Assembly (NCBI GenBank): GCA_021785435.1
Contig: JAJYFE010000004.1
Location: forward strand, 1 to 61,913
Source of the DNA: Planctomycetota bacterium
Lineage (GTDB): Bacteria > Planctomycetota > Phycisphaerae > WQYP01
Direction of reading: 5' to 3'
DNA length: 61,913 nucleotides
Part shown: piece after piece, positions 15,039 to 50,345 of the stretch
How positions within the stretch are numbered: position 1 is the stretch's first letter
Layout of the letters: the number at the start of each line of letters is the position of its first letter
Translations under genes and position numbers: made by a program
Notes under the pieces: model-generated
Database searches by the model: none
What the model saw: only the letters and a program-made list of their open reading frames with translations
Told to the model about the DNA's origin: nothing

Positions 15039-15044
15039 GCCGGG

Positions 15045-23990: not shown

Positions 23991-23996
23991 CGGGGC

Positions 23997-26061: not shown

Positions 26062-26142
26062 CCGGGCTATGAAGAATGGTCGGCTCGAAAGGTCCACTCG
26101 TGCTTCGTGTCTTCGCGGCGGAGCCTGTCCCGATTTCCTCTC

Positions 26143-27056: not shown

Positions 27057-27124
27057 GGAAGGTCCCGTACAGGTTCATATGCCCACCTTTGGGATGTTCT
27101 TTCCGGCCCTTGTGCTGATCGGGG

Positions 27125-28819: not shown

Positions 28820-29547
28820 TAGGCATCAAGAAGAAAACAAATCAGGCTCCCCCGACTTTCCGGTTGCTGGAGCCACCATTCTGTGTCGAAACGACCAAGT
28901 TGTGCTAGTGCCCGTTGTGGGTCACCCCCCGGCCTGATGCGCACCAGAAGTTGTGTTAGGTCCGGGAGTTCCGGGTCGGTTTGCAGCTCGAGCATGGCGG
29001 TCGTAAGTGGACGAAAATACTCGCGGATAGGTTCGCGGGCCCGCGCCAGGAGGGTTCCGACGCCCGGGTGCGCGCTAAGAAAGGCACTAATTTGCGCCGC
29101 GCCGTGCGGTACGTAGCCATCGGGAATGACAGCGCTGTCGCGTTGGGCGTCAGCCCTTTGCCGGGCGGCCCTCTGGCTGGCGTCGCCGCAGAATTTTTCC
29201 GAAGCTTCGTCCGCGGGACTGTTTCCCGCGTAGCGCGTTATAGCCACGGCAAAGGCCTGCCAATCGGGTTGGGGCGCGGACCAGGCTGCGACGGTTTCAT
29301 AGGACCAGGTGACGACCAGGCCGCCCACATTCTCCAGTGCGAGCGACTGGGGCAGGCGCGCGTGTGCGGCGTTCAGCGTTTTCGCGGCGTCCCGGATGCC
29401 TCGCTTGTCGTACCGCACGCTCCGCCCGGGGCCGAACCGAAGCTCCGCTATTCCTTTCTCCATTTCCGGCCGCGCGGAAAACAGGGCCGTCGCACTGGCC
29501 GTTGGCCACTCACCGGAGATGCTGCTTCGCGGTAGTTGCTCGATCAT
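28819..29547 (-). CDS. Hypothetical protein X1 (no recognisable domain)
   Basis: The ATG at 29547 forms an ATGA overlap with the stop of the TIGR04255-like gene (tcat at 29544-29547). It ends in a TAATG overlap with the HEPN gene. The longer track ORF (to 29634) would overlap the upstream gene by 90 nt. Confidence 0.55.
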   Translation of the reverse strand: MIEQLPRSSISGEWPTASATALFSARPEMEKGIAELRFGPGRSVRYDKRGIRDAAKTLNAAHARLPQSLALENVGGLVVTWSYETVAAWSAPQPDWQAFAVAITRYAGNSPADEASEKFCGDASQRAARQRADAQRDSAVIPDGYVPHGAAQISAFLSAHPGVGTLLARAREPIREYFRPLTTAMLELQTDPELPDLTQLLVRIRPGGDPQRALAQLGRFDTEWWLQQPESRGSLICFLLDA

Positions 29548-30365
29548 GCTCTGCCCCACCATTGCTTCTGAACCTCGTGCGACGTCAGCCCCAGGAAGAC
29601 GCTGATCAGCGACTCGTGGGCCATGGCAAACCATTCTTTCATCGCCTCGTCTCCGGCCGCCTTCCCGAACCCGCGCGCCACCGACTCCATTATAATCAGC
29701 GGTTGTCCCGATTCCGCGCGGATGGCGGATTGTATCCTTATATGGGCTCGACCAAGCTCCTCCGGCAGTCCGAAGATCAGCCGATGTTCGAACCCCTCCG
29801 GATCGACCATGCGGCCGCGGCCGGGTGCCCTGAAGGCCACGTCCGGAAACACGCGCCTCGCCAACTGCGTGGGTGACACCGCCGCTTCGCTGGCATCAGC
29901 CGCGATGTGGTCAACATAGATCAACTCGTACTGTATGGCCTCGGCCGACCCGAGCTCATATTCGGCGAGAAAACCGCGAAATTCCACCAGGCGCTGCATA
30001 AACTGCACGAAGGTCGCATGATACTGTGGATACACCGTCTGCGCATCGGCCTTTCGCCAGTTGTAGACATAGCGGTCACGCTGTACCTGGATCAGCTTTT
30101 GACCATCCTTGCTCAGGTACCAGGTCCGGGGCAGTGGTGGCAGATTGGATATGGACAGCTGAATACTGGGAGAGGCGCTGCCTTGTTTAAGCTCAATTGT
30201 CGGCGATAAGGGCGGGGCCTCGCCGAATTGCGTAAAATCGGATTTCCATCGATCCCAGAGCACCCCAAGATGGGGTCCCGTCAGCTTCTGCAGCGGCGGG
30301 AAAAGCAGCCCCATCGCCACCTCGGCAACCGGCGGATTTTCAAAGTGCACCGGTTCTGCCAACAT
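29544..30365 (-). CDS. TIGR04255-like uncharacterised family protein (copy 1)
   Basis: 273 aa from the ATG at 30365: MLAEPVHFENPPVAEVAMGLLF... with mid-protein IQYELIYVDHI and a C-terminal WFAMAHESLISVFLGLTSHEV. The layout matches my memory of TIGR04255 and parallels the second copy at 44154..44885. The first 64 codons of the track ORF are Arg/Gly-rich junk. Confidence 0.5.
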   Translation of the reverse strand: MLAEPVHFENPPVAEVAMGLLFPPLQKLTGPHLGVLWDRWKSDFTQFGEAPPLSPTIELKQGSASPSIQLSISNLPPLPRTWYLSKDGQKLIQVQRDRYVYNWRKADAQTVYPQYHATFVQFMQRLVEFRGFLAEYELGSAEAIQYELIYVDHIAADASEAAVSPTQLARRVFPDVAFRAPGRGRMVDPEGFEHRLIFGLPEELGRAHIRIQSAIRAESGQPLIIMESVARGFGKAAGDEAMKEWFAMAHESLISVFLGLTSHEVQKQWWGRA

Positions 30366-30560
30366 CGTTCCGCCGCCACATAGCCCGCCCTCCATCCGGG
30401 TGCCGCTTACGCCAGCATGGTATCCCTTTTCATATCCTAATCGGGCGTTACCCGCCCAGCAACCACCTCGCGAACCTGGATAGCCGGCGGATGGGCGGCC
30501 GCGGCCGCCGAGGGGACGCCGCCCTTCACACCGAGGATGCGGGGACCTTTCCCGCACCCT

Positions 30561-31553
30561 TCAGCCGCCTTGAGGGCCGGCAGAGAGCGGGGGCGATTGG
30601 CCCGGCGGGATCGCTTCGGTGGCTGCGGCGCTGGGCGAAACAGGCGCGACAGTGACCTCGCTCTCCGCGCCCGGCCCTCGCGTTCCGGGTAGGGTGGATT
30701 CCACGTTGGAGTGGACGTAGCCCGTCAGGTTCTCGAATTTGGCGATGGTCTCCGCTATCTTCTTAAAGGGGACGACGATCGCCATGCCTGCATTTACATT
30801 TCCGCCGCCTGAACGGTCAGCGGCCGTTGTAGGGTCGACTTCATCGATGTCTACCGCTGCGGTGTCGAAGTGGCCGTGGATTAAGCCAAGCAGGAGGACG
30901 TTCGGTCCACCCGACTGAAACCGGAGATTGGCACCGAGCATCCGCACGGGGCCGAGGTTCAAAAACACCGGCGATCCGCTTAAGCCCCCGATCGAGCGGG
31001 CCTCAATCAGGTACGCGTCCATCGCCCCGAACGAAGGAGATACCAACACCTTGTCTTCGGGCATACACGCCAGGTTGCCTATTCTGACAACCGGCTCATT
31101 CTTCCGAGTCCCCGGATGGTAACGCAGCAGGCCTGTGACAAAAACCTCGTCGCCCAGCCCCACCTCGTTGGCTCTGAGCTTTTCTTCGTCGACGCACTGC
31201 GAATAAGGAAAAACAAGATGGTCGAGACCCTCGGGAATCCCCGCCCTCAAGATGGCCACGTCGACGGAGCCGTCGTCGGGATGGGAGAACCAGCCGGCGG
31301 CGTCGGTGGGAACCCATTTGGCCTGGCCGTCGGCGCAATTAACGCGGAGCAGGGGTTGGCCGTTACCCCGGTTTCGCACCCACTCGACCACATGCCTCGC
31401 CGTTACCGCGTAGACGGGATCCGCTCTTCTCCCGCCGGGCGTATCACGCCCGAGGAAGAACACGGAGCCCGCGAAACGGCGTTGCCCGCCGTCCTCGTAG
31501 CCGATAAAGGCAACGCACTTCCGGACCTCATCGGGAACAATCACGGGTCTCAC
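30561..31553 (-). CDS. Trypsin-like (S1/chymotrypsin-fold) serine peptidase
   Basis: Catalytic triad context: VYAVTARHVV (His), DVAIL (Asp), GGLSGSPVFL (Ser). GTG start at 31553. A C-terminal Pro/Ser-rich tail. Confidence 0.7.
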   Translation of the reverse strand: MRPVIVPDEVRKCVAFIGYEDGGQRRFAGSVFFLGRDTPGGRRADPVYAVTARHVVEWVRNRGNGQPLLRVNCADGQAKWVPTDAAGWFSHPDDGSVDVAILRAGIPEGLDHLVFPYSQCVDEEKLRANEVGLGDEVFVTGLLRYHPGTRKNEPVVRIGNLACMPEDKVLVSPSFGAMDAYLIEARSIGGLSGSPVFLNLGPVRMLGANLRFQSGGPNVLLLGLIHGHFDTAAVDIDEVDPTTAADRSGGGNVNAGMAIVVPFKKIAETIAKFENLTGYVHSNVESTLPGTRGPGAESEVTVAPVSPSAAATEAIPPGQSPPLSAGPQGG

Positions 31554-31559
31554 CTCATC

Positions 31560-31789
31560 TCAACCACCGCGCCGAAATTCCTCCAGCGTGGCATCCTTCA
31601 CTTCCTGCGCCACGATTGGGAAGGTGGACAGAATGTGGGCGAATTCTTCCTCGGTTAAGCCATACAGATGCGCGATGATCGCGTCCAATTCCGCCCGCAG
31701 TTTCAGCCGCTTCGCGGGATCGGTTACGCCGTCCTTGTGGCTTTTCAGACCCACCGACTTGGCCAGCTCATCAAATTCCGGCGTGGTGC
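31560..31789 (-). repeat. MTase 3-prime-end remnant V (direct repeat of 38388-38617)
   Basis: 31633-31789 matches 38461-38617 at 155/157 nt by my manual alignment. The distal 73 nt (31560-31632) are clearly more diverged. Encodes ...GLKSHKDGVTDPAKRLKLRAELDAIIAHLYGLTEEEFAHILSTFPIVAQEVKDATLEEFRRGG (track ORF 31560..31754). Confidence 0.9.
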
Positions 31790-31896
31790 GTGTCGGCTCG
31801 GATGGCCGGATCCGCCGTTCCTGGCGAGGCCATAATGACAGGTCGCCCCTTCGCGTTTCCCCTTGGTAAACAGATGGCGCTCATAACCACAGCGCC

Positions 31897-32838
31897 CTAC
31901 CGAAACAGCGCCGTAACAGATCCGGTCATTCGCCAACGCGGGCGGTGCGCCACTTCTAACACTTGCTCCAAATTTGGCTTTCGATCCAGTGCCCGTCCGC
32001 GAATCGGTATGCCGCCGCGCTCGATGAAATGCGGATTCGCTTCCGCCGAGGGACCGGGCGATGCAAAATCAACCACAAATAACGGATGATGGCGTCTGAT
32101 CGCCTCATCGCCCGCCGCGAATGTGCCCCCCTCGTTTGCGGATTCCACCAGAATCATCCCGTCGGAAAGACCAATAATGGTGCGGTTGCGTTTCATGGCG
32201 TTGCGCGCGATCCAGGGGAGGCTCGGCGGGAATTGCGAAACAACCAGGTGCTTTCCCCGGCCCAGCACATCGGCAATCTCCTTCTTGACGCGGAAATGTC
32301 GGATGCCCTCGGCCACGACCATGATCGTCGCGCCACCGGCCTCCAGGGTGGCCCGGTGCGCCGCTAAATCCACGCCATGGGCGTAGCCGCTGACCACACA
32401 GATATTCTGGCGGGCCAGGGCCGCGGCAGCGTCGCGCGTGACCGCCAGGCCCTTGTCCGAAGCTTGGCGAGAGCCACAGAATCCCAACGCTGGCAGGTCA
32501 AAAAGTTCAGCCTCGCCTCTGAGGAAAAGAAAGGGTGGCGCCTCATCCCCCAGGATGGCCTTGAGGCGCGCCGGGTAGGCGTCATCTTCGATCCAGAGCA
32601 GCCGGACGCCGTGGAGTTGCAGGTTATCCCATAGCCGGGCCGCCGCGTCCCCTGATTTCCCGACGTTGGCGGCTGCCGGTTCCGAGACACCTAACACCTC
32701 CCTCAGGCGGGGCGGGTCCAAGCGAACGGCGTCGGCCGGGGAAATGCCTTCACCTGCGCAGTACCGGGCCAGGTGCCGCAGGGCCGCTTCCCCGACCCCT
32801 TTCGCCAGGATGAACTGTAACAGGGGAAGCGCGTTCAT
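31897..32838 (-). CDS. DprA/Smf-family (SLOG Rossmann) protein
   Basis: YPARLKAILGDEAPPFLFLRG...LGFCGSRQASDKGLAVTRDAAAALARQNICVVSGYAHGVDLAAHRATLEAGGATIMVVAEGI...RNRTIIGLSDGMILVESANEGGTFAAGDEA follows the DprA signature closely. The ATG is coupled by ATGA to the upstream PRTase gene. Confidence 0.85.
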   Translation of the reverse strand: MNALPLLQFILAKGVGEAALRHLARYCAGEGISPADAVRLDPPRLREVLGVSEPAAANVGKSGDAAARLWDNLQLHGVRLLWIEDDAYPARLKAILGDEAPPFLFLRGEAELFDLPALGFCGSRQASDKGLAVTRDAAAALARQNICVVSGYAHGVDLAAHRATLEAGGATIMVVAEGIRHFRVKKEIADVLGRGKHLVVSQFPPSLPWIARNAMKRNRTIIGLSDGMILVESANEGGTFAAGDEAIRRHHPLFVVDFASPGPSAEANPHFIERGGIPIRGRALDRKPNLEQVLEVAHRPRWRMTGSVTALFR

Positions 32839-33686
32839 TGGTTATCCGTGTCGCTCATTGATTTTACGCACACCAACCCGAAAACATATTTTGCCCCGAG
32901 GCTCTTCAAAAACTTAGCGCAACACCATAGCGTGACGCCGGACTGATATAGATCATCCACAACGGCCACCGTCCTGCCCCTTATGTCGGCATCGATTCGA
33001 ACGCACTGGCCGCGTTCGTATAACTCGCACCAGTGCTTCATCTTTTCCACGAAAGGCAAATTTTTCAGATAGGATTTTCCACAGCATAGGCTGCTTTGAA
33101 CAAGGGGAACGCCCTTGTCTTTCGCGACGCGCATTGCCAATTCTCTGCCGAAATTATACTTTTCCAGGTCGGATGGGACACCGGTGATCAGCAGATTGGT
33201 CTTTTCCTCGGGCGGTACGGGCAGGTAATCAAACGCCTCGACCATCGCCCTGCTCACAACGGAGCAATAGGCTTGGGACTGCCGGTATTTGGCCTGATAC
33301 AACGCCTCGCCAAACAATGTCCGCCTTTCCGAGTTTGGATCGTAGTTAAAAGACAGCCCCATGCAGAAATCCAGCTCTTGCGAAAAGCCGGGAGCGATGT
33401 GCCTGCTCAATCCGATCAGCACATATTCCTGGAATCTCTGTCTCCAGTTCTCGATCTGTTCAAGGTTTGCCTGGTTGAGTGCGCCGGCCGGAAACCAAAG
33501 GTATTTCATCTTGCCCCCCTTGGATACACGCCAGCCATTTGGGGCCAGCTTAGAGATTTGCGGGCAGTGGTAATCGAAAAGCCCCGGATAGGTGTCGCAG
33601 GAAACGAACAGGCTTATCGCACCATCGTCGTATTCGTTGAGATGACATTCGAGCTGTGACCGGCTGTGGGTGGTCCGTGGGATCAT
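32835..33686 (-). CDS. Phosphoribosyltransferase-domain protein
   Basis: C-terminal type-I PRTase PRPP loop RTVAVVDDLYQSGVTLW. The ATG at 33686 has GGAG 4 nt upstream. The N-terminal ~180 aa have no recognised domain. Confidence 0.7.
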   Translation of the reverse strand: MIPRTTHSRSQLECHLNEYDDGAISLFVSCDTYPGLFDYHCPQISKLAPNGWRVSKGGKMKYLWFPAGALNQANLEQIENWRQRFQEYVLIGLSRHIAPGFSQELDFCMGLSFNYDPNSERRTLFGEALYQAKYRQSQAYCSVVSRAMVEAFDYLPVPPEEKTNLLITGVPSDLEKYNFGRELAMRVAKDKGVPLVQSSLCCGKSYLKNLPFVEKMKHWCELYERGQCVRIDADIRGRTVAVVDDLYQSGVTLWCCAKFLKSLGAKYVFGLVCVKSMSDTDNQ

Positions 33687-33921
33687 TTTTCTCCACCTGC
33701 TGCCAGCACCGGCGGTGCGGAACAGTGTTCCACCGTTTGAGCCGGCTGCCGACCGGGCGTTGCCGGGCCGCGGGTCACACGCATCCGCAGCTGGGTGCCG
33801 CAATTATAAACCACATACGGCCAACGGTCATGCTTCAGGCGCATTATTCACATTTTTTCCCGGTCGAAGATATTCCCAACTCGCCGGGTAATTGTCCACC
33901 GGGGTAGGCCGGCGGCTCGCC

Positions 33922-34071
33922 TCAATTGGTGCGTTTGAAGTCCTCAAGCGTCGCCCGTTTCACTTCCTCTGGCACGATCGGAAACGTCCCCAATATGTGG
34001 GCGAATTCTTCCTCGGTTAAGCCGTACAGATACGCGATGATCGCGTCCAATTCCGCCCGCAGTTTCAGCCG
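33922..34071 (-). repeat. MTase 3-prime-end remnant IV
   Basis: 33971-34071 is 101/101 identical to 38437-38537 by my manual alignment. The distal tail 33922-33970 is diverged. Encodes LKLRAELDAIIAYLYGLTEEEFAHILGTFPIVPEEVKRATLEDFKRTN. Confidence 0.9.
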
Positions 34072-34817
34072 ACCAGCCCCGACAACGACAACTGCTGGAA
34101 GCCTTCGGCGTCGACGATCGCCACCGGAACGAACGCCTTCAGCGAAACCCACTCGCTAAGCGCACGCCGCGGGAGCCGGCCCGCCCGCAGCTGAATTTCC
34201 CCAAGCGTCCGGGGGGCCTGCCACTCTCCCCGGGCTTCGACGGGGTCGCCGGGTTGGTGCGATGCGGGCCCGGGCGATGGCGCGAAAGGGGACGGGGGCC
34301 GCGGGGCCGCGGCGAGGCCCCCAGGCCAATACAACAGGCCTGCCTCGCCGCCTTGCGAACACCGCTCGTAGAGCCGCGCCAGTAAATCAGCAAGGCGCCG
34401 GCCCGCATCCCGACAGTCATCCTCCATGGTTGCAGCAGGGGTGTCAGCCGACACGCCGACGGTCACGCACGGGTCGCTCGCGAGGCGAAGCTTCCCCTGC
34501 GCCAAGCCGTCGGGCGGGAACAGATAGGCCATCGTGGCGATCCCCCGAACCGCGATGTCTTCCCGGACCAGTTCGTCGCGCCAGCCTGGTCCGACGCCGG
34601 AGGGCTGCGCGGGCGCATCGATAAGCTGCCGGTAGTCCAAGGCGAACAGCGGGTTGGGCGCGCCGAGAAGGTGCAGCACGGCGTGGAACCCCCGGCTGCA
34701 CGGGGACCATAGCCGCGTCGGCGCGGCCGGGGTTGCGGCGAGTGCCTCGCGGAACGCGCTTTCCAGCGCCGTGCTCCACTGCTCGGGCGTACCCGCCCGC
34801 CTCCCCGCCTGGCTCAC
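34065..34817 (-). CDS. Hypothetical protein (third gene of the HipA-like module)
   Basis: 250-aa ORF starting 11 nt after the HIRAN-like gene. No recognised domain. Its TGA stop (34065-34067) lies inside remnant IV, in a different frame from the MTase tail. A decayed paralogue sits at 27125-27530. Confidence 0.5.
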   Translation of the reverse strand: MSQAGRRAGTPEQWSTALESAFREALAATPAAPTRLWSPCSRGFHAVLHLLGAPNPLFALDYRQLIDAPAQPSGVGPGWRDELVREDIAVRGIATMAYLFPPDGLAQGKLRLASDPCVTVGVSADTPAATMEDDCRDAGRRLADLLARLYERCSQGGEAGLLYWPGGLAAAPRPPSPFAPSPGPASHQPGDPVEARGEWQAPRTLGEIQLRAGRLPRRALSEWVSLKAFVPVAIVDAEGFQQLSLSGLVG

Positions 34818-34827
34818 CGACGTTCTC

Positions 34828-35601
34828 CTAAACGGCCCAGTCCCGTATTGAATTAAATTCCTCCCCGGTCATTGGATCGTGGCCCTCCGGCCACTGGCCC
34901 GTGAGTTCGATCAGGAATCGCTGGTGGGTAGGTGCACCGGGTGGGTTTCGTCTGACCAGGCGGGCTTGGGCGCCAGCGGCCCCGCCCGCCGCGGGGGCGA
35001 GGACTTCTGCCACGTAACGCGGCGCCCAGCCGACCACGTGTGCATCCCGCGGTCGCCCTGGCGACTCTTCGATCCGCAGTTCAACCGCCGGTTCCATTGC
35101 CGGGCCATCTCGGCGCACCGCCACGCGCAGCGGCTCATCGGCGCCAAGCTCGGCAAGCCGGGCTTGCGCGGCCTGCGTGGTGCGCCGCCAACCACGGAGG
35201 AAGAACCGGCACCGGAAACTTCGATCGGCCCCTGCTTCGAGCTTGGGAAATACCTCCAGATTGTCCGTCTGGCGCCGCCCGCCTGTTAGCGCCAGCAACG
35301 TTAAAGGGTCGGCCTCTTCGGGGCGCAGGTCCAGCAGCTTCAGGTACTCCGCATATTCCTCGCGCGTGGGGGAAAGGACCCGATTGCGAAAGAGGGGGAA
35401 TAACTCGTCCGCCTCGTAGCGCCACCCGAGGTACGGGAACGCCTCCAGCGGCCGCCACCCGGCCTCCTGTGCCGCCAGTTGGGCGCCCTGCGTGTACCAG
35501 AAGCAATAATGGCATGCTGCGGGATCGGCTTCGAGCCGGCCGATGGGGTACCAGCGCCGCATTTGCACCGGGCTCTGCCACGCCAGGAACAGGCTCGTCA
35601 T
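34828..35601 (-). CDS. HIRAN-like domain protein with conserved N-terminal WYPIGRL domain
   Basis: From the ATG at 35601 (ATGA overlap with the HipA-like stop): MTSLFLAWQSPVQMRRWYPIGRLE...YCFWYTQGA...ELFPLFRNRVLSPTREEYAEYLKLLDL...DPLTLLALTGGRRQTDNLEVFP, then FFLRGWRR...GADEPLRVAVRRDG...AVELRIE...HVVGWAPRYVAEVL. This resembles proteins I recall as annotated HIRAN domain-containing. Confidence 0.5.
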   Translation of the reverse strand: MTSLFLAWQSPVQMRRWYPIGRLEADPAACHYCFWYTQGAQLAAQEAGWRPLEAFPYLGWRYEADELFPLFRNRVLSPTREEYAEYLKLLDLRPEEADPLTLLALTGGRRQTDNLEVFPKLEAGADRSFRCRFFLRGWRRTTQAAQARLAELGADEPLRVAVRRDGPAMEPAVELRIEESPGRPRDAHVVGWAPRYVAEVLAPAAGGAAGAQARLVRRNPPGAPTHQRFLIELTGQWPEGHDPMTGEEFNSIRDWAV

Positions 35602-36542
35602 ACCTTGACCTTCCTCAACTCCGCCATTGTATAGCGCAGGACATCCCGACAGAAGTCCTTCTGAATAGCGGTCATGCACGTGTTGGGAACCCGATCGACT
35701 GGCAAGATCACGCGGGCTTCTTCGAGGGCCCGCAACTTTTCGAGCCATGGCTTCGCCAAGGCGGGGTCCTCCTGGGCGAGACGCCGCAACAGCGCCATTG
35801 GGCTGGGGCCGCACCGCGCGTGCGCGTCCCAGTAGATTCCGCCACGGCCTCTTTCCACGTATTGTCCGATGCGTCCGTGGCGTATCAACTCAAGGCGCCG
35901 GGCGTCGGTCAGTTCGCGCCCAAGGGAGGAAGCATGGTCGTAAGAAGGGGCCACGGAAATTTCGACGTCCACGGGACCATCCCGGCGGGTCTCCAGGATC
36001 GCCCAATTTTCGTGGTGGCGATCGGTATTGCCGATCCAAGCGTCGAACACGATCAGCCCCACCAGCTGCGCCAGATAGGGCCGGGCGCCGCTCTCGGGAA
36101 AGCGGGCTTCGACTGCCTTGCGAATGTTGGCCCAGCGGTGATCGGCCTGCCCGCGACGCTTGGCCTTATCGTAGCCCGTCACCCATTTCCCCAGGAGCTC
36201 GTTTCCATGGACAAGCTCGCCCAGCCGAATGTGATGCGAAAAGGGGTCATATTGATGGGGAATAAAGGACCGGGAGGCGGTTCCGACCACCCCCTGGTAG
36301 CGTGCCAACTCCACCCGCGCCACCGGCAGGCCGATCAGGGGCGCTAGTTCGGCGGCAATTTTCTCCGCCCAATGCTCGCCCGTTCCCGGCCGTGGGTACT
36401 TAAAAAGCCACCGGCGGGGGTCGCTGTCGACAGAAAACCAGAATTTGGTCTTGGTCCCAAACAACTCCGTGTCAAGCCGCTGGAAATCGTGCCGACCCTC
36501 CCGCAAGTCCCAAACGTCGTACTCACCGGGCTCGCCACTCAT
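35598..36542 (-). CDS. HipA-like Ser/Thr kinase domain protein
   Basis: Catalytic-loop motif DAWIGNTDRHHENWAIL (HipA_C-like). Upstream GTKTKFWF...LFKYPRPGTGEHWAEKIAAELA. No HipB-type HTH gene is adjacent. Confidence 0.7.
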   Translation of the reverse strand: MSGEPGEYDVWDLREGRHDFQRLDTELFGTKTKFWFSVDSDPRRWLFKYPRPGTGEHWAEKIAAELAPLIGLPVARVELARYQGVVGTASRSFIPHQYDPFSHHIRLGELVHGNELLGKWVTGYDKAKRRGQADHRWANIRKAVEARFPESGARPYLAQLVGLIVFDAWIGNTDRHHENWAILETRRDGPVDVEISVAPSYDHASSLGRELTDARRLELIRHGRIGQYVERGRGGIYWDAHARCGPSPMALLRRLAQEDPALAKPWLEKLRALEEARVILPVDRVPNTCMTAIQKDFCRDVLRYTMAELRKVKV

Positions 36543-36730
36543 GGGGGCTGCGCTCCCTTAAATCTGCGAAATTCCTCCATCGTCGTGTGTTTCACTTCCT
36601 GCGGCACGATCGGAAACGTCGCGAATATGTGCGCGAATTCCTCTTCGGCTAAGCTGTGCCAACGGGCGATAATGGCGTCGAGCCCGGCGCGGAGCCGGGG
36701 CCGCCCGAATCTTCCATCCCTTGGCGAGGC
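36539..36730 (-). repeat. MTase 3-prime-end remnant III (diverged)
   Basis: My translation gives RDGRFGRPRLRAGLDAIIARWHSLAEEEFAHIFATFPIVPQEVKHTTMEEFRRFKGAQPP*, against the MTase tail KDGVTDPAKRLKLRAELDAIIAYLYGLTEEEFAHILGTFPIVPQEIKDATLAEFTRHV. Its frame ends in a TGA that overlaps the ATG of the HipA-like gene. Confidence 0.7.
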
Positions 36731-37671
36731 TGTAATGGGATGGCCCCACCTGGAGCCAAAGCCATGACCTGCTGTTTTATTAATCTGGCGCCCTCGTGGT
36801 TCTCAATGATTTTGAATGCGGCGCTGTTCATGAGGGCGTGCATGTAGCAATGATGAACGGTTAGCACCAAATCCTGGAGTTGCTGGTCCTCTTCAATCAG
36901 GACGACTTTCAGGCCCATCTTTATGCACTCGTCGGCGTGGATATGCCTGCTGTGGGCCTTGTGGCTGCGGTAGTCGGCGAGCCTTCTGGCTATCTTCGAC
37001 GCTTTGGCATCCGCGTCGGGCTCACCGGCGAACATGACTTTCGACAGCTGCTCACGTACGAAGCCATTGGACCAGTCGATGGCGTTGGAGCACTGCCCCA
37101 GAAAGGTGGGATGATATTTTCCGATAATAGGCTGCCAGACCGCGGCCCTGGCGGGGTCGGATTTAATTTCCTTGACCGCCTGCTTGAATTCCCGTATCAC
37201 ACCCTGGGCGGGAACTCCACGTACCTGTGGGTCAATAGGACCGAGATTAGACTGCTTGCCCATCAATATTTCCCTGCACGAGCAAGCCATGACCGTACCC
37301 GCCGACATGGCGATTTGCGGCACGATAGCGCGAATGTTGCGGTCGAACATTTTTTGCAGGTAGTCAACGATGGACTGGGTGGACGCAATATCACCCCCCG
37401 GCGTGTGCAGGATGAGATCTAGCCCCTGGCTCCGATCGAGCTTATGCACGGCCATCATGAAGCCGTTTTTGTCTTCATCGTTTATCTCCGCGCCGACGAT
37501 CTGCGGCTTGGAAAGCCAGCCCGAATAATAGGCAATAATGTTACGTGTCGTGCGCTGATGAAGCTGGCCAAGGTACTTTTTTCGAACCGAGTCCAAAGCC
37601 TGCTGGGCCATCGCCTGGTGGCTGAGGATTTCTTGATTAATCTCGTTTTGGACATCGCCCCAATTCGGCAT
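36649..37671 (-). CDS. SDH-family ClpP-fold serine protease (SppA/ClpP-like)
   Basis: LDLILHTPGGDIASTQSIVDYLQKMFDRNIRAIVPQIAMSAGTVMACSCREILMGKQSNLGPIDPQ matches the serine dehydrogenase proteinase family pattern. The last ~27 codons are read from remnant III in a different frame, so the native C-terminus may be replaced. Confidence 0.7.
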   Translation of the reverse strand: MPNWGDVQNEINQEILSHQAMAQQALDSVRKKYLGQLHQRTTRNIIAYYSGWLSKPQIVGAEINDEDKNGFMMAVHKLDRSQGLDLILHTPGGDIASTQSIVDYLQKMFDRNIRAIVPQIAMSAGTVMACSCREILMGKQSNLGPIDPQVRGVPAQGVIREFKQAVKEIKSDPARAAVWQPIIGKYHPTFLGQCSNAIDWSNGFVREQLSKVMFAGEPDADAKASKIARRLADYRSHKAHSRHIHADECIKMGLKVVLIEEDQQLQDLVLTVHHCYMHALMNSAAFKIIENHEGARLIKQQVMALAPGGAIPLQPRQGMEDSGGPGSAPGSTPLSPVGTA

Positions 37672-38019
37672 ACGACCCTCACCTCGCTGGCGCGGGCCAC
37701 GGCGTAGTGGTTGTTGTGATGGTGGGCACCGCGGGGAACGGCCAGGGCTGCTCGAGCGAGTAACTGTCCCCGGGGGAAACCGCCGGCGCGGTTATCCCGG
37801 CGCTCCGGGAGAGATAGCGCCGATAAAGAAGAGCCAATTTCGCGGCCTCCGATCCCGCCCTGTGGTATGCGGGACCAACTCGCCGCTTCCTCCGGTGTCC
37901 AGGTTGTTTGCCCGACCGTCCCATTATTATCTCCTTTCTCGGTGAGTTGATTCACCAATCAGTTTAGCCGCTACGGGACAGGCGTCAAATAGCCCGCGAT
38001 GCGCAGTGGCGCATCCGCG

Positions 38020-38130
38020 ACTTAAATTCCGCCATCGCCGCGTCGTCCACCCCCTGCGGCACAATGGGAAATGTCCCCCCAACATGTGCGCGAACTCTGC
38101 TTCGGTTAAGACGTACAAATGGGCGGTGCT
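38020..38130 (-). repeat. MTase 3-prime-end remnant II (diverged, frameshifted)
   Basis: Two track ORFs carry its halves: ...AHLYVLTEAEFAHMLGG (37927..38292) and GGTFPIVPQGVDDAAMAEFKSRMRH (37985..38176). One extra C in gtcccccc causes the frame change. Confidence 0.6.
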
Positions 38131-38286
38131 GGGGTGGGACAATTTTTCGGGGGTGGAATCCCCGCTGATAGTCCACCGCCAGTTCTCGAACGCGGCCTCC
38201 CGTAGCCGGCCATGTCCCGGCCGTTCAGTCGCCTGGGCGACCTGGCGGAGCGATGCGGGTACGCGCTTTGACCGCGGCGCCGATGG

Positions 38287-38362
38287 GGGCATCGGCGGCT
38301 ACATGGCCGATGAGGGCATCGGCGGCTACATGGCCGATGAGGGCATCGGCGGCTACATGGCC
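38287..38362. repeat. 27-bp tandem repeat, 2.8 copies, each unit a hairpin
   Basis: GGGCATCGGCGGCTACATGGCCGATGA at 38287-38313 and 38314-38340, plus a 22-nt partial copy at 38341-38362. Stems CATCGGC/GCCGATG. Lies 25 nt downstream of the MTase stop codon. Confidence 0.9.
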
Positions 38363-38387
38363 CCGGGGCGCGGGGGTATGCGGCAGG

Positions 38388-41300
38388 TTAAACGTGCCGG
38401 GTAAATTCCGCCAACGTGGCATCCTTGATTTCCTGCGGCACGATCGGAAACGTCCCCAATATGTGGGCGAATTCTTCCTCGGTTAAGCCGTACAGATACG
38501 CGATGATCGCGTCCAATTCCGCCCGCAGTTTCAGCCGCTTCGCGGGATCGGTTACGCCGTCCTTGTGGCTTTTCAGACCCACCGACTTGGCCAGCTCATC
38601 AAATTCCGGCGTGGTGCAGATCAGCCGCGCGGCACGTTCCACAATCGGTGCGAAGGCCGGGTCTTTCTCGGTCAGGCGCGGGACGGGCAGTTGGTAGACG
38701 TAGAAGAAGTTCACGTTGGCCGAGACTCGCTGGCGAATGATGTAGTCCAACGCCAAGGCGTCGAGGATGGCGGCAGCCCACAGGCGGACAGGGCCATGCG
38801 CGAGCCAAACGCCGTCCGCAGCGGCGAACTCGCCCGCCTGGAAACTGTTGGCGCAAAACGACGGCGGGGCGACCGTTGTTACCAGCGTCCGCTGGTCCGT
38901 GTTTCGTGCGATGTTCCTGAACCCCAGCCGGTAATCCTGATAATCCAATTTCTGGCCCGTGTCCGGCGTGCGGCCCAGGATTCTTGCCCGGCCCTTCTTT
39001 TCATCCACCCAATAGCGCGGCGGGGCCAGCTGATGATCGAACTGCCAGATCATTTTGCCTTCATACAGCGGCAATTTTCCTTTGCCCGGACTGGTCTCAA
39101 ACAAATCGCTGTCGTTCGTCATGTTGAGCTCCTGGGCGAACCGTACGTTCCAATTGCCTTGGATTTTTTCGCCCAGCAGCGGGAATTTCAGCATCTTTTC
39201 CGCGATCTGCACATCCAGATCGCACTTGAATTCCATGATGGAAAGCGAATCCGGCGAAAGCCGCCGCACCAGATCAACGGCTATCTCCAGGCCTCCCTGC
39301 CGGGGAAAACCCTCCAGTTCGGCCACATCGTGGCGCATGAACGCGGCAGGAAATTCCACCGTCTGGCCGCCCTTTTGAAAGGTCAAAACGACGAACTTGA
39401 AACTACGGTGCACGCCCTCAAAGATTTCCTTGCGATTCTCAAAACCAAACAGGCCAGTGATGTGGGTTTCTTTAAACAGCATTTCCCGCAACTGCTTGCT
39501 GCCCAAATCGGTATAAATGCCGGAGGGAATCACAATACCGCAAAGCCCGCCGGGGCGCAGCAGGTTGAAGCACTGTTCGGTGAACAACTTGTATAGGTTA
39601 ATCTTCGAAGCCGGGGTGCGCCCGCTGGCGTCGGTTGACAGCTGGTTTGGGTATTGGGCGGAGAGCTTAAAATACCTCGACGGGTGGGGAAACTCGCTGG
39701 AGTATGCAAGCCACGCCTCCCGCACTCTGCGATCTTCCATTATCGCGGCGCGCTGGGCCACCCAGTCCTCGATGCGGAGGCTCTTCTTGGTAATTGAGGG
39801 AATGTATTCTTGGAAAAATTCTTTCTCGTCGGTCTGGAAGACCTCCCACGGCGGATTGGTGATGATGGCGTCGAAGCCGCCGTTTTTATTTAGCACCCGG
39901 TCGAATTCAAAGCCCCAATGAAACGGTTTCAGTCGCTGGATATCGGCCAGGCCCAGCGGTCGCTTCTTCGGCCGGCCCTGAACCTTTTTCACCCCATCCC
40001 ACGTCGCCTGCTCGAACTTGATCCCCAGCCGCTCGAACTCGCCGAGCAGCAGGTCATCGAGCACGGCGGCGCAGGCGCGCTTGAGGGAATCGATGTTGTT
40101 GCGCAGGGCGGTTAAATCGTCGGCGTAGGTAGCTGTCCGGCGATAGTTGTCAATCCGCCGATTTTTGTCTTGCAGAATTTCCTGGTATGTCCGCTGGCGG
40201 AACAGCTGCCCCTGTTTTTGTTCAAACGATTTATCATCCACCCGCATCAGGCCGATGAGCGAATTGCCGGGCAGAATGTTAAAGTCGATATTCGGCAGCG
40301 GCTCGAGCTGATCGACGGTTTCGGCGGAGGAACCCAGCGCCAGAAACAACCGCAGGCGGGCGATTTCCACGGCCTCTTCCATCAAATCCACGCCGAAAAG
40401 ATTATCCGTAATGATGCATTTCTTGATGAAGTAGTCGATGTTGGAGTGCTTTTTTTCGATGTCGGCCAGCCAGGCGGAAAGCTCGGGATCATGCAGAAAT
40501 TTAATCTGGCCGATGATGGGAGAATAAATGCCGATCAGCGTATTCATGGCGGCCACCAGAAAGGCCCCTGATCCGCAGGCCGGATCCAGCAGTGACAGAT
40601 TCGGCAAAACATCATGGATCAGCTTGTGACACAGCGGGGCATCGAGATCAATCAGCAGATCGGCCACCGACTCATAACGGCGGGTTTTTACCCCCGCCAG
40701 GGTCGGCACGCCGGGGGACGTGTTGGCGGCGTCGAGAATCAGGCGGTGGATGGTCCGTTCGCAGAGATATTCCGTGATTTCCGGGCGGGTGTAATAGGCG
40801 CCGAAGGCTTTCTGGTTGATATATTGCTCAAAGATGTAGCCGAGAACGTGCGGGCTGATTTCGCGGTCATTTTCGCCGGGCGCGTCGTTAAGATTCCAGG
40901 AATAGGAGGCGAACAGCTGGAAAAGTTTATCGAAGAAGGCGTCAGGAATGGCGATATTCTGGTTTTCGGTTTCGATGCGGTGCGGCAGAAACAGGCCGCC
41001 GTTGAGGTAGCGGATGTTGCCGAGCTCGGTACGGGCGGCGGGCGAGCGTTTTTCCGGCGGTTTGGCGAAGCCTTCAAAGAAAAGCAGTTGCAGAAAATCG
41101 CGGTAAAAGCGTTCGGGGCCCTGGCGGCGGGAGGCCTGCAGCTTACGCTGCAGGTAGTCGATATCGCCGTCACGGGCTTGGGCGTCCCGGTAGTCGAGAA
41201 ACCCCTTGCGCTGCAGGAAATAGATGAACATCAGGCGGTTTAAGAGAATGGAGGCGTACCAGCGGCGATCGTGGTCCGTGGGTATGCCCTGGATCAGCTC

Positions 41301-41939
41301 CACCAAGTTGTCGTGGATACCCTCGAATTCCCTGAAAAAGCGTTTGGTGACCCGTTGGACATCCAGCGCCGCCTGGAGTCGCTGCGTAACTTCGGTCAGT
41401 TTGATGCGTCCATCGGAATCAAATTCCGAGATGTCAAAATGGATGGCGCCCAATTTGCTGATGAACAGATCGCCGGGCTGGCCGGCGGCGAAGAGATGCT
41501 CGCGCGGCACGGTTTTGCCATTTTCACGCTTGACCCAGCGCCAGAGGCTTTGGGTGCCGTTGGCGTCAACGAAAATCAGGAGGCATTCATACTGCAGCTG
41601 GGAGATTCCCTTATGGATGGCGGCGCGGGTTGGGGCGTCGGGTATGGCGGCGGATTCAACTTGATAAACGCCCACGCCGGCCAGATCGGCAATATGGCGG
41701 CGGGTAAGCTGAAGGCCATCGATGGCCATGGGAATCCCGTCGCGGCGGCCGGGGGGCGGATTCGACCAGCCCAAGTGTTCGATGAACAGCTCGCCGAATT
41801 TAAATTGGCGCAGGCATTCGCGCACGGCGGGAAAATTCAACCGCGCGGCGGCATTGGGCCGGGCATGAAGATTCTCCGTGCCCGGGGCGAGTTCGCGGTG
41901 GAGGGTAGACATGACGGCAATTATGGCCGAGGTGCGCAC
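38388..41939 (-). CDS. Eco57I/PglX-like gamma-class N6-adenine DNA methyltransferase, type IIG-like large protein
   Basis: Motif X AFGAYYTRPEIT, motif I LLDPACGSGAFLV, motif IV ITNPPWEVF, the N-terminal block ILLNRLMFIYFLQRKGFLD, and a long C-terminal TRD-like region ending LYGLTEEEFAHILGTFPIV. The track start is GTG at 41939; an alternative ATG is at 41912. Confidence 0.85.
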   Translation of the reverse strand: MRTSAIIAVMSTLHRELAPGTENLHARPNAAARLNFPAVRECLRQFKFGELFIEHLGWSNPPPGRRDGIPMAIDGLQLTRRHIADLAGVGVYQVESAAIPDAPTRAAIHKGISQLQYECLLIFVDANGTQSLWRWVKRENGKTVPREHLFAAGQPGDLFISKLGAIHFDISEFDSDGRIKLTEVTQRLQAALDVQRVTKRFFREFEGIHDNLVELIQGIPTDHDRRWYASILLNRLMFIYFLQRKGFLDYRDAQARDGDIDYLQRKLQASRRQGPERFYRDFLQLLFFEGFAKPPEKRSPAARTELGNIRYLNGGLFLPHRIETENQNIAIPDAFFDKLFQLFASYSWNLNDAPGENDREISPHVLGYIFEQYINQKAFGAYYTRPEITEYLCERTIHRLILDAANTSPGVPTLAGVKTRRYESVADLLIDLDAPLCHKLIHDVLPNLSLLDPACGSGAFLVAAMNTLIGIYSPIIGQIKFLHDPELSAWLADIEKKHSNIDYFIKKCIITDNLFGVDLMEEAVEIARLRLFLALGSSAETVDQLEPLPNIDFNILPGNSLIGLMRVDDKSFEQKQGQLFRQRTYQEILQDKNRRIDNYRRTATYADDLTALRNNIDSLKRACAAVLDDLLLGEFERLGIKFEQATWDGVKKVQGRPKKRPLGLADIQRLKPFHWGFEFDRVLNKNGGFDAIITNPPWEVFQTDEKEFFQEYIPSITKKSLRIEDWVAQRAAIMEDRRVREAWLAYSSEFPHPSRYFKLSAQYPNQLSTDASGRTPASKINLYKLFTEQCFNLLRPGGLCGIVIPSGIYTDLGSKQLREMLFKETHITGLFGFENRKEIFEGVHRSFKFVVLTFQKGGQTVEFPAAFMRHDVAELEGFPRQGGLEIAVDLVRRLSPDSLSIMEFKCDLDVQIAEKMLKFPLLGEKIQGNWNVRFAQELNMTNDSDLFETSPGKGKLPLYEGKMIWQFDHQLAPPRYWVDEKKGRARILGRTPDTGQKLDYQDYRLGFRNIARNTDQRTLVTTVAPPSFCANSFQAGEFAAADGVWLAHGPVRLWAAAILDALALDYIIRQRVSANVNFFYVYQLPVPRLTEKDPAFAPIVERAARLICTTPEFDELAKSVGLKSHKDGVTDPAKRLKLRAELDAIIAYLYGLTEEEFAHILGTFPIVPQEIKDATLAEFTRHV

Positions 41940-42182: not shown

Positions 42183-42728
42183 CTATTTCCGGGGGATCAC
42201 CCGCATGACGACAATCTCGCAAAGCATGCCGCTCTGGTTGTGGATATACCGATCCGCCGCGGCAATCGCCGCCTGGTCATGCAGGTAGCGATCACTGCCG
42301 CCCCGGGTCCACCAACGGCGCGGCGCTCCGGCGGCTTCGCTCAAGGCGGCGCTGCTTACGCCCTTGATCACACGCCGCACGGCGGGGCCGTCAGCGGGAC
42401 AGTTCGTTATGAGGCTGTGGATATGATTGGCCATGCACGCGGCGCGGAGGATAACCCAGTCGCGTTCGACGGCGGCCTGGCGGATAGCCTCGGCGGCGAC
42501 GCGGGATTCCGCTTGCGTCAACCAAACTGTGACGTGCTCTTGAAATCTCCTGGCGGCGGCGAGGGTGGCCGGATCATCCTGACCGCACGGCGTGCCGCGC
42601 TGGTTCCGCTTTCGCTCGTATGCTCCGCCAGGCAACAGCGTGTTGGAAACATAGCCGCGTGGATCACCAGGAAGCCAGGTGCCGTAGGTGGTCCAAGTGA
42701 TGAACAGGGCGAAAGGCGATACGGGCAT
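42183..42728 (-). CDS. REP-associated tyrosine transposase-like protein (IS200/IS605 Y1 HUH family)
   Basis: FITWTTYGTWLPGDPRGYV N-terminal block, HUH motif MANHIHSLI, and catalytic Tyr context RYIHNQ. Flanked on both sides by REP hairpins. I chose the ATG at 42728; the track's GTG at 42749 lies inside a REP. Confidence 0.7.
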   Translation of the reverse strand: MPVSPFALFITWTTYGTWLPGDPRGYVSNTLLPGGAYERKRNQRGTPCGQDDPATLAAARRFQEHVTVWLTQAESRVAAEAIRQAAVERDWVILRAACMANHIHSLITNCPADGPAVRRVIKGVSSAALSEAAGAPRRWWTRGGSDRYLHDQAAIAAADRYIHNQSGMLCEIVVMRVIPRK

Positions 42729-42748
42729 GGGCGCTCCGTCGGATGACA

Positions 42749-42769
42749 CCGCCGGGATAAACCCGGCGG
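42749..42769. repeat. REP hairpin, inverted orientation (CCGCCGGG-ATAAA-CCCGGCGG)
   Basis: Same stem as 41964 with the loop reverse-complemented. Immediately upstream of the RAYT gene. Confidence 0.85.
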
Positions 42770-42882: not shown

Positions 42883-43065
42883 TCAGTCTTTCCCCCGTAA
42901 CCCGAGCGAACAGATGATCCGCGGATCGAAATTGGCCGGGTCTTCCGTGACGTTGCACAAGTCGTTATCGGCTCTTAAATCGCTCACCAACCGGCCCAGC
43001 GCCTCATCATCCATGCCTTCCCGGATGCAGCCGGCCGGGCGCCCTGTTTCGATCGCCGTACTCAT
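42883..43065 (-). repeat. Helicase 3-prime-end remnant (direct repeat of 46946-47080)
   Basis: 42905-43023 matches 46962-47080 at 118/119 nt by my manual alignment. Encodes ...REGMDDEALGRLVSDLRADNDLCNVTEDPANFDPRIICSLGLRGKD, against the helicase C-terminus ...REGMDDEALGRLVSDLRADNNLCNVTEDPANFDPRIICSLGLRG. Confidence 0.9.
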
Positions 43066-43127: not shown

Positions 43128-43784
43128 CTACAGTTCCGGCGCATGGTGGGTCAGGTGCTTGAAGATGTGCACCGCTAAGTGTCCGAAGTTCCCTTGCATC
43201 GCTTGCTTCATAATGAAAGTGTAATCGGAATGATCCGGGCGCTGACGGACCCTAAATTGCGGCGGTACGCCAAACCGCAATAGGCCCCAAGCCCACAGCA
43301 GACGGGACAGCCGGCCGTTCCCATTGATAAAAGGGTGCACCTGTATAAACCGCCCGATCATCGTGCCGAGGATAATGGCCAATCTCTTGGCGCGTTCCTG
43401 TGGTGACAGCTCCGGCCAGTCGAGCTCCAGTGCAACGGTGTATCGGCGCAGGTGATCGAACAGCCGCTCCATCTCGGAAACCACGGTTTGGTACGGTGCG
43501 CCGGGGGTTCCTTCCACCCGGACATCTGTTTGCAGGCAAGGGCGTAGCGGATCAATTTGCCGATAGTTTCCGGCGTAATAGTCGAGTGGGACGTGGTGTG
43601 TGAACAGGGTGCGGTGCCAGTCACGGCAGGCCGGCGAATCGACGATTTTTCGCTTGGCGGCCGCCGCAGCCGCTCGATAGGCCGCGGCGACGGAGGCGCG
43701 GAAAGTTCCTTCCCTGGTCTCGGGGCCGTCCGAAGACCACTCCGGACAATTACCGGTGTAGGGCCTGGTCATCGTCATCCGCAA
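43128..43784 (-). CDS. Fic/DOC family protein
   Basis: Canonical Fic motif HPFINGNGRLSRLL. Overlaps the upstream small gene by about 35 nt. Confidence 0.85.
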   Translation of the reverse strand: MRMTMTRPYTGNCPEWSSDGPETREGTFRASVAAAYRAAAAAAKRKIVDSPACRDWHRTLFTHHVPLDYYAGNYRQIDPLRPCLQTDVRVEGTPGAPYQTVVSEMERLFDHLRRYTVALELDWPELSPQERAKRLAIILGTMIGRFIQVHPFINGNGRLSRLLWAWGLLRFGVPPQFRVRQRPDHSDYTFIMKQAMQGNFGHLAVHIFKHLTHHAPEL

Positions 43785-44885: not shown

Positions 44886-45092
44886 TCGCGGTGATCCTAC
44901 CCGGTGCTAAGGTGACCCGCAACTGGCAAGCTACTTCGCCCTCCCAGCCAAATGGTTCGATGGACAACTCGCGGAGCTTGCACTGACGCGGCAGGTCGCG
45001 CGTGGCGGAAAAATTAAGGGCATGAATCCGGCGCTCCGTGGTAATCGAGATCGGGCCATCCGGCGAAGGTCAGGCTGGTCCCGGCGTAACCG

Positions 45093-50314: not shown

Positions 50315-50345
50315 GCGATCCCTTACCAACCTAATTTCCTCAAGG

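Follow-up and report, generated by a model that had tools for sequence, protein, structure and literature searches.

Copies of a methyltransferase gene end separate exchangeable cassettes in a defence island of a Planctomycetota bacterium

What makes defence genes gather in islands, and how islands grow without transposases or integrases, is still debated, and one island in a Planctomycetota bacterium offers a concrete and testable route. The stretch analysed, called the window below, is the 61,913 nt of contig JAJYFE010000004.1 (assembly GCA_021785435.1; Planctomycetota; Phycisphaerae; WQYP01) and all coordinates are positions within it. The island extends from about 50.3 kb, at a helicase gene, to about 28.4 kb, with housekeeping genes on both sides. 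It contains a two-gene system resembling restriction-modification (RM), namely a nuclease-helicase and a methyltransferase (MTase), together with several small gene modules. A first reading made from the letters of the DNA alone, referred to here as the sequence-only reading, had proposed that the 3′ end of the MTase gene recurs between these modules. Why should the end of one gene be found again and again behind it, and how did the modules come to lie there? The answer reached here is that the cassettes probably accrete and are exchanged by homologous recombination, free of any dedicated recombinase, in a multi-copy, array-forming variant of insertion with long target duplication.

A BLASTN comparison of the window with the final 450 nt of the MTase gene revealed four further copies, all on the same strand as the live gene (E values from 9e-90 to 2e-16), and the next best match had an E value of 0.006. 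The doubt raised at the outset, that the copies might not be significantly similar, is thereby removed. Counting the live tail as copy 1, the matches were 38023-38128 for copy 2 (76% identity, E 2e-16), 36569-36679 for copy 3 (78%, E 2e-21), 33964-34071 for copy 4 (98%, E 1e-49) and 31575-31789 for copy 5 (93%, E 9e-90). A repeat search of the window against itself recovered the identical five-member families. The identity counts of the sequence-only reading were exact: 33971-34071 matches 38437-38537 at 101 of 101 positions and 31633-31789 matches 38461-38617 at 155 of 157, and the stop-proximal parts are diverged, with 27 of 49 and 51 of 73 positions identical. For copy 3 the proposed limits, 36539-36730, were a little wide, significant similarity covering 36558-36694. 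Annotation with Pfam, PADLOC and NCBIfam placed one tail copy ahead of each module behind the MTase, and the copies do partition the island, each sitting between gene modules.

The copies look like gene ends. In alignments, copies 4 and 5 keep the reading frame and have their own stop codon at the position homologous to that of the live gene. Copy 3 has lost 4 nt immediately ahead of the homologous stop and its frame continues to a stop at 36558, and copy 2 is frameshifted by a 2-nt insertion. The displaced tails are about 110–230 nt long, representing the last 35–75 codons, and include no target-recognition part. Where they depart from the live tail, they do so mostly at third codon positions (10, 5 and 16 differences at the three positions in copy 3), and the copies still encode ...LDAIIA.LYGLTEEEFAHI..TFPIV, the conserved C-terminal motif of the MTase family. 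Common to all the copies and the live gene is a conserved upstream block encoding ...LDAIIA.LYGLTEEEFAHIL.TFPIV. Given the third-position bias and the retained motif, the copies derive from once-functional MTase ends of diverged homologues, and chance similarity and fresh target-site duplication are both excluded as their origin. Structured sites were also sought. The tails have no excess of attC-like or other structured folding (DNA fold z-scores of -1.0 to +1.8), a palindrome, GACGCGATCATCGCGT, considered as such a site is not conserved in copies 2 and 3, and no tRNA or tmRNA target was found in the window.

The MTase has more than 7600 homologues, and 162 related loci were fetched from genomes and metagenomes of many phyla; the loci and contigs compared are labelled L001 onwards (L082 is the window's own contig). 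Contigs from related assemblies, 98–99% identical in the shared parts and flanks, show at least four arrangements, with all breakpoints inside tails. Reading from the MTase, the window, L164 and L165 carry the hairpin units, the SDH protease, the PDC-M03 cassette, the PRTase/DprA pair and the distal set. In L166 and L168 the MTase is followed by PDC-M03, PRTase/DprA and the distal set, and in L081 by PDC-M03 and the distal set. L178 has the MTase and then PDC-M03 directly, at which point the contig stops, and L179, at 93.5% identity, has the MTase, two hairpin units, copy 2 and then SDH. The SDH protease cassette is absent from L081, L166, L168 and L178, and the PRTase/DprA pair with one tail, a unit of 2362 bp or exactly one repeat period, is absent from L081. 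A third independent indel was found in another Planctomycetota pair, where L001 has a 437-aa open reading frame (ORF) between two tails and L007 has none.

Comparison with related genomes, proposed as a check in the sequence-only reading, hence places different cassettes behind the live MTase tail, the hairpins and SDH in the window and PDC-M03 in L081, and the expected turnover of cassettes at tail junctions is seen as presence and absence in related contigs. Cassettes are gained, lost and reassorted between strains via recombination inside the shared block. Since SDH and PRTase/DprA are present or absent separately across the arrangements, the two indels assort independently. This does not agree with the suggestion that older ends were pushed downstream, nor does the location of the PRTase/DprA indel at an internal tail pair.

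The junctions themselves are informative. The single tail at the empty site of L081 is a hybrid, with copy 4 on the left and copy 5 on the right and both junctions at the same position. It thus carries the signature of a single reciprocal crossover, by which a circle was integrated or the unit deleted. The difference in SDH presence goes with a diverged 3′ third of the MTase gene (84–93% identity, compared with about 98.5% up to 39814, with at least four alleles), as a double crossover from the MTase body to one of the tails would produce.

The diverged stop-proximal ends can be traced to live genes elsewhere, as expected if each cassette brings a surrogate end for the MTase. The stop-proximal end of copy 3, followed by AAGGGAGCGCAG.CCCCATG with the start codon of the HipA-like gene, serves as the live end of the MTase gene in L081, L166 and L178. 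In L010, the counterpart of copy 2 is a live MTase end with the SDH protease gene immediately behind it, and in alignment this region is 73% identical to the stretch from copy 2 to SDH in the window. In L001 and L007, the end linked to a PDC-M30/M41 pair is live in one of the two genomes, and in the other it is a displaced copy. The linkage of end and cassette is thus found in independent lineages (window/L081/L166, L010 and L001/L007). As the displaced ends are live elsewhere with the same cassette downstream, the diverged last 50–70 nt and the leader belong to the downstream cassette. The left edge of a displaced tail belongs to the upstream cassette, whose stop codon often lies in the first nucleotides of the tail.

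Why then are parts of the copies nearly identical to the live gene? The sequence-only reading regarded the identity patches as relics of the insertion crossovers. When the window was compared with L166, whose flanks are 98.8% identical, the orthologous displaced tails were found to differ at 16 sites, 12 of them in copy 5 and 4 in copy 4. For 7 of the 16, the base in each copy is that of the live MTase allele in the same genome, and for 4 more copy 5 of L166 matches copy 4 of L166. Both L081 tails share a variant (ACGATGAAGGAATTTCG) missing from the window orthologues. Displaced tails thus follow the live allele of the genome in which they reside, not their orthologues, and it is short-patch gene conversion that keeps the shared block close in sequence to the live gene. 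The blocks of 101/101 and 155/157 are maintained by such conversion, which ends where the homology ends. As they are kept in this way, the identity blocks neither date nor order the insertions.

Nor is the MTase tail the only gene end to have been duplicated, although the sequence-only reading treated it as a special attachment site. In the order of transcription, the upstream half of the island consists of the helicase, HTH-M78 with DUF4411, a remnant of the MTase head, TIGR04255-X-Fic, a copy of the helicase tail, a Y1 gene flanked by repetitive extragenic palindromes (REP) and the MTase. As a helicase-tail copy (42892-43036) and an MTase-head remnant (44944-45018) stand around the cassettes, the helicase–MTase junction too was duplicated by insertions. 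Tail length and divergence point also vary between events and lineages. Duplication is a property of the system's conserved gene ends and not of one particular tail sequence. Duplication of the helicase tail was also considered as a general rule; it is confined to the window lineage, L053 (weakly) and L065, and the junction inserts of L002, L007 and L010 are without it.

In 131 of the related loci the MTase start is included, and in 109 of these a helicase homologue precedes the MTase on the same strand. Of the 109 pairs, 69 are immediate neighbours (gap of 150 nt or less) and 28 are separated by more than 600 nt of inserted DNA. The junction is a frequent lodging site for extra genes across phyla (L002, L021, L025, L054, L083, L084, L128 and others); in L002 it holds PDC-M03-like genes and a Y1 gene.

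These results can be assembled into a route by which small defence or toxin-type cassettes would accrete at both gene ends of the two-gene restriction-like system. For the first duplication, DNA bearing a homologous MTase 3′ end and its downstream neighbour would recombine with the resident gene, presumably by a single crossover of a circular or circularised piece, as in insertion with long target duplication. Later exchanges would be simple double crossovers running from MTase body to tail. All of this could be ordinary homologous recombination of the RecA type and a dedicated recombinase would be unnecessary. The rationale for the duplication may lie in the flanks. A cassette in the helicase–MTase junction would have two conserved flanks and could be swapped without duplication (L002), whereas one behind the MTase would have a single conserved flank, as the system occupies varied genomic places. 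A tail-duplicating single crossover would insert the cassette and simultaneously make the missing second arm, so that the tail copy would be the second homology arm otherwise lacking for a cassette behind a mobile defence system.

Homologous recombination is favoured because the crossovers fall in the homology block, conversion tracts are present, the extents of the repeats vary, the divergence point differs between lineages (about 30 nt later in L001/L007 than in the window), unrelated gene ends are duplicated, Pfam finds no recombinase and no structured site is apparent. Pfam was run on every major ORF of the 62-kb window, with PADLOC used in addition, and as the sequence-only reading had remarked no integrase or recombinase is visible there.

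Several observations sit uneasily with this account. The PRTase/DprA crossover maps to about 10 nt (AGGAAGTGAA) at the extreme end of the conserved block and not to the near-identical stretch of 78 nt immediately before it. A crossover there would be unusual for exchange of the RecA type, unless the map was blurred by subsequent gene conversion. The direction of the indels, insertion or deletion, does not seem polarisable, the outgroup L010 at 70–80% identity being too distant, and all haplotypes derive from metagenome assemblies. About 95% of the related loci are single-tailed and many cassettes lodge without duplication (L002, L172), so the mechanism must be sporadic and not obligatory. Finally, the system is essentially absent from viral contigs: in IMG/VR a degenerate tail pattern gave 0 matches and the whole system 1. 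Carriage by phages or satellites was rejected on this ground.

The variable left boundaries of the displaced tails could be explained differently, by one-sided, homology-facilitated illegitimate recombination of linear DNA from relatives, with the MTase body as anchor and the far end joining illegitimately within the last 110–230 nt. No circle would be needed. Those boundaries do coincide with the stop codon of the cassette gene before them or fall within it, with no motif in common, and the MTase 3′ third is mosaic between haplotypes as imports anchored in the gene body predict. However, copy 5 reaches to -230 while the empty-site tail of L081 begins at -150, and the extra 80 nt cannot come from the recipient's tail, the origin that this model demands for that event. 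Both junctions of the PRTase/DprA indel coincide, as in a reciprocal single crossover, and illegitimate joints normally sit downstream of the homologous anchor. This explanation is therefore unlikely.

The narrow placing of the crossovers could instead point to a dedicated site-specific system, comparable with integrons or Xer/dif, with a core site where the conserved tail ends and a recombinase that is encoded elsewhere in the genome or is the Y1 protein or the helicase-nuclease itself. The PRTase/DprA crossover and probably the SDH-side crossover do fall in one short stretch (GTGCCNNAGGAAGTGAA) and not in the longer identical block, and a Y1-type gene is conserved directly upstream of the MTase in the window, L002, L007 and L081. 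Against this, Pfam finds neither a tyrosine nor a serine recombinase in the window, the tails have no conserved hairpin, and the displaced tails range from about 110 to 230 nt with the later divergence in L001/L007 noted above. The helicase tail and MTase head, unrelated in sequence, are duplicated likewise, and loci of other phyla in which no Y1 homologue was found have extra tails as well. The Y1 gene itself is in a typical arrangement for a REP-associated tyrosine transposase (RAYT). A GKTTATCCCG hairpin motif occurs 7 times where 0.19 are expected, at 5633, 16072, 37790, 41971, 42057, 42753(-) and 42840; four of these flank the Y1 gene, and 5633 and 16072 are far from the island. Gene and motif thus look like a REP/RAYT pair, and no link between the Y1 gene and the cassettes was found. 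A dedicated site-specific system is on this evidence quite improbable.

A more adventurous idea, for which the chance is similarly small, is that the MTase tail, and likewise the helicase tail, are genuine capture sites, with breaks made by the PLD-nuclease/SNF2 helicase at its own locus, or the Y1 REP-type enzyme, promoting cassette insertion at gene ends. The restriction-like system would then be a self-extending platform comparable with an integron, without an integrase.

As the sequences all come from metagenome assemblies, and related samples contain several strain variants side by side, the array might be a chimera in which strain variants were joined at the shared repeat. However, the full array is present in two further independent assemblies (ENA contigs L164 and L165, the former 99.995% identical over 20.9 kb) besides the window's own record, which is in both NCBI and ENA. 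The other haplotypes, too, turn up repeatedly, and the longest exact repeats, about 101–125 nt, do not reach the k=141 that the names of the ENA contigs imply. On these grounds an assembly artefact is very unlikely. Hardly credible at all is a derivation of the copies from several full-length MTase paralogues that decayed in place beside immobile cassettes, a possibility admitted in the sequence-only reading, for although L057 does have a second full-length MTase paralogue in tandem, all four remnants are just the last 110–230 nt exactly at module boundaries, the haplotypes of close relatives contradict it with clean cassette presence and absence and hybrid tails, and the same stop-proximal ends are live gene ends elsewhere.

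Of 160 related loci, about 7, drawn from several phyla, have extra tails, the window with its five copies being the extreme. Apart from the window lineage, they are in L001 and L007 (Planctomycetota), L060 (Kiritimatiellia), L076 (Chloroflexi), L057 (Clostridia) and, weakly, L084. The cassettes that they bracket include a PDC-M30/M41 DUF5131 pair, Mrr_N with RhuM/PDC-S05 (L060) and a RelE-like gene (L076). In L057, the second MTase paralogue (1323 aa, 13970-17941) is followed by an isolated tail fragment (18450-18602); this is the only locus where a whole paralogue explains an extra tail.

A different setting for the PRTase/DprA pair is seen in L172 (5734-20807; also L173-L177), where a pair 70% identical to that of the window lies directly behind an SNF2/NOV_C helicase in a locus of BREX-related type (DUF1156 MTase - TIR - AAA_15 - DUF499). 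No gene-end repeats were found around the L172 pair. Cassettes of this type appear to be habitual lodgers in RM-like operons, with duplication just one way in.

The features of the island are collected in Table 1.

Table 1. Features of the window, in descending order of position within each group
Feature	Position	Strand	Evidence
Tails
Live MTase tail (copy 1)	38388..38617	-	Repeat search, BLASTN, alignment
Tail copy 2, frameshifted	38023..38135	-	BLASTN, alignment; counterpart is live MTase end followed by SDH protease in L010
Tail copy 3	36558..36694	-	BLASTN; stop-proximal part is live MTase end in L081, L166, L178
Tail copy 4	33922..34071	-	BLASTN, alignment, exact identity count
Tail copy 5	31560..31789	-	BLASTN, alignment, exact identity count
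Core system and other duplicated ends
HKD/PLD nuclease + SNF2 helicase, first core gene of RM-like system	46946..50329	-	Pfam PLDc_2, SNF2-rel_dom, ResIII, Helicase_C; PADLOC 'HKD+Snf2' 5e-56, DrmD-like
Live helicase 3′ end	46949..47093	-	138/145 identical to 42892-43036, sharp boundaries
MTase 5′-end remnant, 25 codons (LNFSATRDLPRQCKLRELSIEPFGW)	44944..45018	-	tblastn with MTase N-termini, best E 3e-6; BLASTN match to L010 MTase start
Displaced helicase 3′ end copy	42892..43036	-	Repeat search, identity count; also in L081, L178, L179
Y1 (HUH) REP-associated tyrosine-transposase-like gene	42183..42749	-	NCBIfam REP_Tyr_transpos 8e-8 (below cut-off); Pfam Y1_Tnp 6e-4
Eco57I/MmeI-family N6-adenine MTase, 1183 aa, with target-recognition part, second core gene	38388..41939	-	Pfam Eco57I, MmeI_Mtase; PADLOC type IIG, DrmMI-like
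Cassettes and modules
HTH + M78 peptidase (45617-46798), DUF4411/PIN-like (45093-45620)	45093..46798	-	Pfam; between live helicase end and MTase 5′ remnant
TIGR04255 protein (44154-44885), 135-aa unknown (43750-44157), Fic (43128-43784)	43128..44885	-	NCBIfam TIGR04255 1e-28; Pfam Fic
Three tandem 27-nt hairpin units, directly after live MTase stop	38279..38362	-	Repeat search; RNA fold z = -2.9
ClpP-like SDH-type serine protease	36649..37671	-	Pfam SDH_protease 6e-19; stop codon inside tail copy 3
PDC-M03A (HipA-like kinase), PDC-M03B, 250-aa protein	34065..36542	-	PADLOC 3e-81, 5e-62
PRTase (PsyrT/ShosT-like) + DprA-like (PsyrA/ShosA-like)	31897..33803	-	PADLOC PsyrA 2e-56, PsyrT 9e-9
Distal set: 330-aa (weak PDC-S45), TIGR04255-family 337-aa, 271-aa unknown, 127-aa (weak PDC-M05B)	28436..31553	-	PADLOC, NCBIfam; in all haplotypes

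As the start codons of at least two modules, the PDC-M03 cassette and the distal set, are within about 20 nt of a tail stop codon, the spacing suggests that both are read as an extension of the MTase operon. A scan for promoters and terminators between 31 and 39 kb gave nothing above shuffled expectation. The TIGR04255 / 135-aa / Fic trio is also found upstream of the MTase in L010.

Some further observations concern individual parts of the locus. The MTase 3′ third, probably the target-recognition part, was compared over 38403-39814 of the window with L081, L166, L178 and L179; it includes unalignable stretches at 39602-39814 and about 38713-38913 and exists as at least four alleles, which suggests that specificity may be switched by allelic replacement. 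No gene lies between the live tail and copy 2, and the hairpin 'cassette' may be a leftover; its copy number varies, with three units in the window and two in L179 (about 6860-6920). Near the far edge of the island, 27145-27280 is a direct repeat (136 nt, 76%) of 34266-34401, within the third gene of the PDC-M03 cassette (34065-34817). This repeat is also present in L081 and L167 and may be the remnant of an older cassette copy. Beyond the island there is a second large indel, about 7 kb (20023-27079: AAA_14/DUF4143, two T2SSF and pilin-like genes) being represented by about 650 nt in L081 (12748-13400). Inverted repeats of 45 nt, 91% complementary and 5.4 kb apart (15548-15592 / 20970-21014), enclose genes for a POR-type oxidoreductase and a T2SSE ATPase.

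The locus suggests that defence islands can grow without an enzyme from a mobile element. A widespread, conserved defence gene would supply the homology, and a cassette carrying a piece of that gene's end would insert and leave the gene undamaged. With a duplicated gene end as its second flank, the cassette would be portable to any genome that has the same MTase or system. The population data show turnover on short time scales and independent reassortment, and conversion keeps the repeats competent for recombination. With this evidence the locus can be used as a model of how defence islands accrete. Repeated gene ends can also be used as a marker to delimit uncharacterised cassettes, such as the SDH protease, the TIGR04255 sets and the third PDC-M03 gene, and may help to locate embedded cargo in other RM-like, BREX-like and DISARM-like loci.

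It remains to compare the island with known systems. The core genes resemble parts of class 1 DISARM (DrmD/DrmMI) and of the Type-2 BREX-related (BR) system, in which a DUF499 AAA+ ATPase, a DUF3780 protein, an HKD-SNF2 helicase and an N6-MTase occur together (PMC12839542). Common to all is an N-terminal HKD/PLD nuclease fused to an SNF2 helicase and its pairing with a large Eco57I-type adenine MTase, but the system in the window has two genes only. No match to the DUF499 ATPase, DUF3780, DrmA, DrmB or DrmC was found among the window's main ORFs. Assignment to Type-2 BR was rejected, the helicase and MTase being present and DUF499 and DUF3780 not found in the window, as was assignment to class 1 DISARM (DrmA, DrmB (DUF1998) and DrmC with DrmD and DrmMI), to which there are just partial DrmD-like and DrmMI-like matches. 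In most related loci the helicase and MTase are a neighbouring stand-alone pair.

Integron arrays also have one-directional, promoter-poor cassettes behind a fixed platform gene with a repeated element between them. Here, however, there is no IntI, attI or attC and the repeat is coding sequence without a hairpin. Membership was rejected, as no Phage_integrase or recombinase match was obtained on the major ORFs of the 62 kb and the repeats are in-frame coding tails lacking an attC fold. A phase-variable RM shufflon (hsdS or type IIG) was likewise rejected, all repeats being direct and without a target-recognition segment, and no invertase being present.

Tandem accretion at gene 3′ ends is already documented. 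Integrase-less elements accrete in tandem at the 3′ end of fda in Streptococcus thermophilus (cis-mobilisable elements, CIME, and integrative and conjugative elements, ICE) and of orfX/rlmH in composite islands of staphylococcal cassette chromosomes (SCC). There too the arrays are split by direct repeats from the gene's 3′ end, the incoming element's replacement end keeps the gene intact and members without a recombinase persist. Those elements use a site-specific recombinase and a short fixed core, whereas here the repeats are long and variable, Pfam finds no recombinase, and crossovers and conversion look homologous. Two window events lie near one stretch of about 10 nt, as a fixed core would require; the extents of 110–230 nt, the shift of about 30 nt in L001/L007 and the lack of any recombinase found point the other way. 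In Neisseria, the cassettes of minimal mobile elements, frequently with restriction or defence cargo, are exchanged by homologous recombination in conserved flanking genes. The likeness is that small cassettes without mobility genes are swapped through conserved flanks; the difference is that Neisseria has two different resident flanks, whereas in this island a piece of the first flank, duplicated, forms the second.

The closest precedent is insertion with long target duplication, in which RM units lacking mobility genes are inserted with target duplications of 46–423 bp (Furuta, Abe & Kobayashi 2010, PMC2853133), and the opinion in the sequence-only reading that the mechanism was undescribed goes too far. 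On tail-flanked defence cassettes as such nothing specific was found in the literature, the nearest being that paper and general papers on hotspots. In both cases a defence-related unit is inserted without mobility genes, the direct repeats, tens to hundreds of bp long, have a single counterpart at the empty site of a related genome, and the repeats vary in length and often overlap the 3′ end of a gene. Nobusato et al. (2000) is reportedly a further source for this kind of insertion. Where direct repeats of more than 30 bp equal to one copy at the empty site are expected, copies 4 and 5 align over 134–140 nt and L081 has one hybrid tail. Where an insert of less than 20 kb with no mobility gene is expected, the inserts are 1.7–2.4 kb and Pfam finds no integrase or transposase in them, the sole transposase-like gene nearby being the RAYT-like Y1 gene. 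Restriction and modification genes, expected in the insert, are here the target: the RM-like genes receive the cassettes, and the cargo is not RM but the SDH protease, the PDC-M03 trio and the PsyrTA/Shosta-like pair. The window differs further in that insertion has recurred at one target to give a five-copy array, in that the two repeats differ stop-proximally, where the surrogate gene end lies, and in that the copies undergo gene conversion and mediate the reassortment of cassettes.

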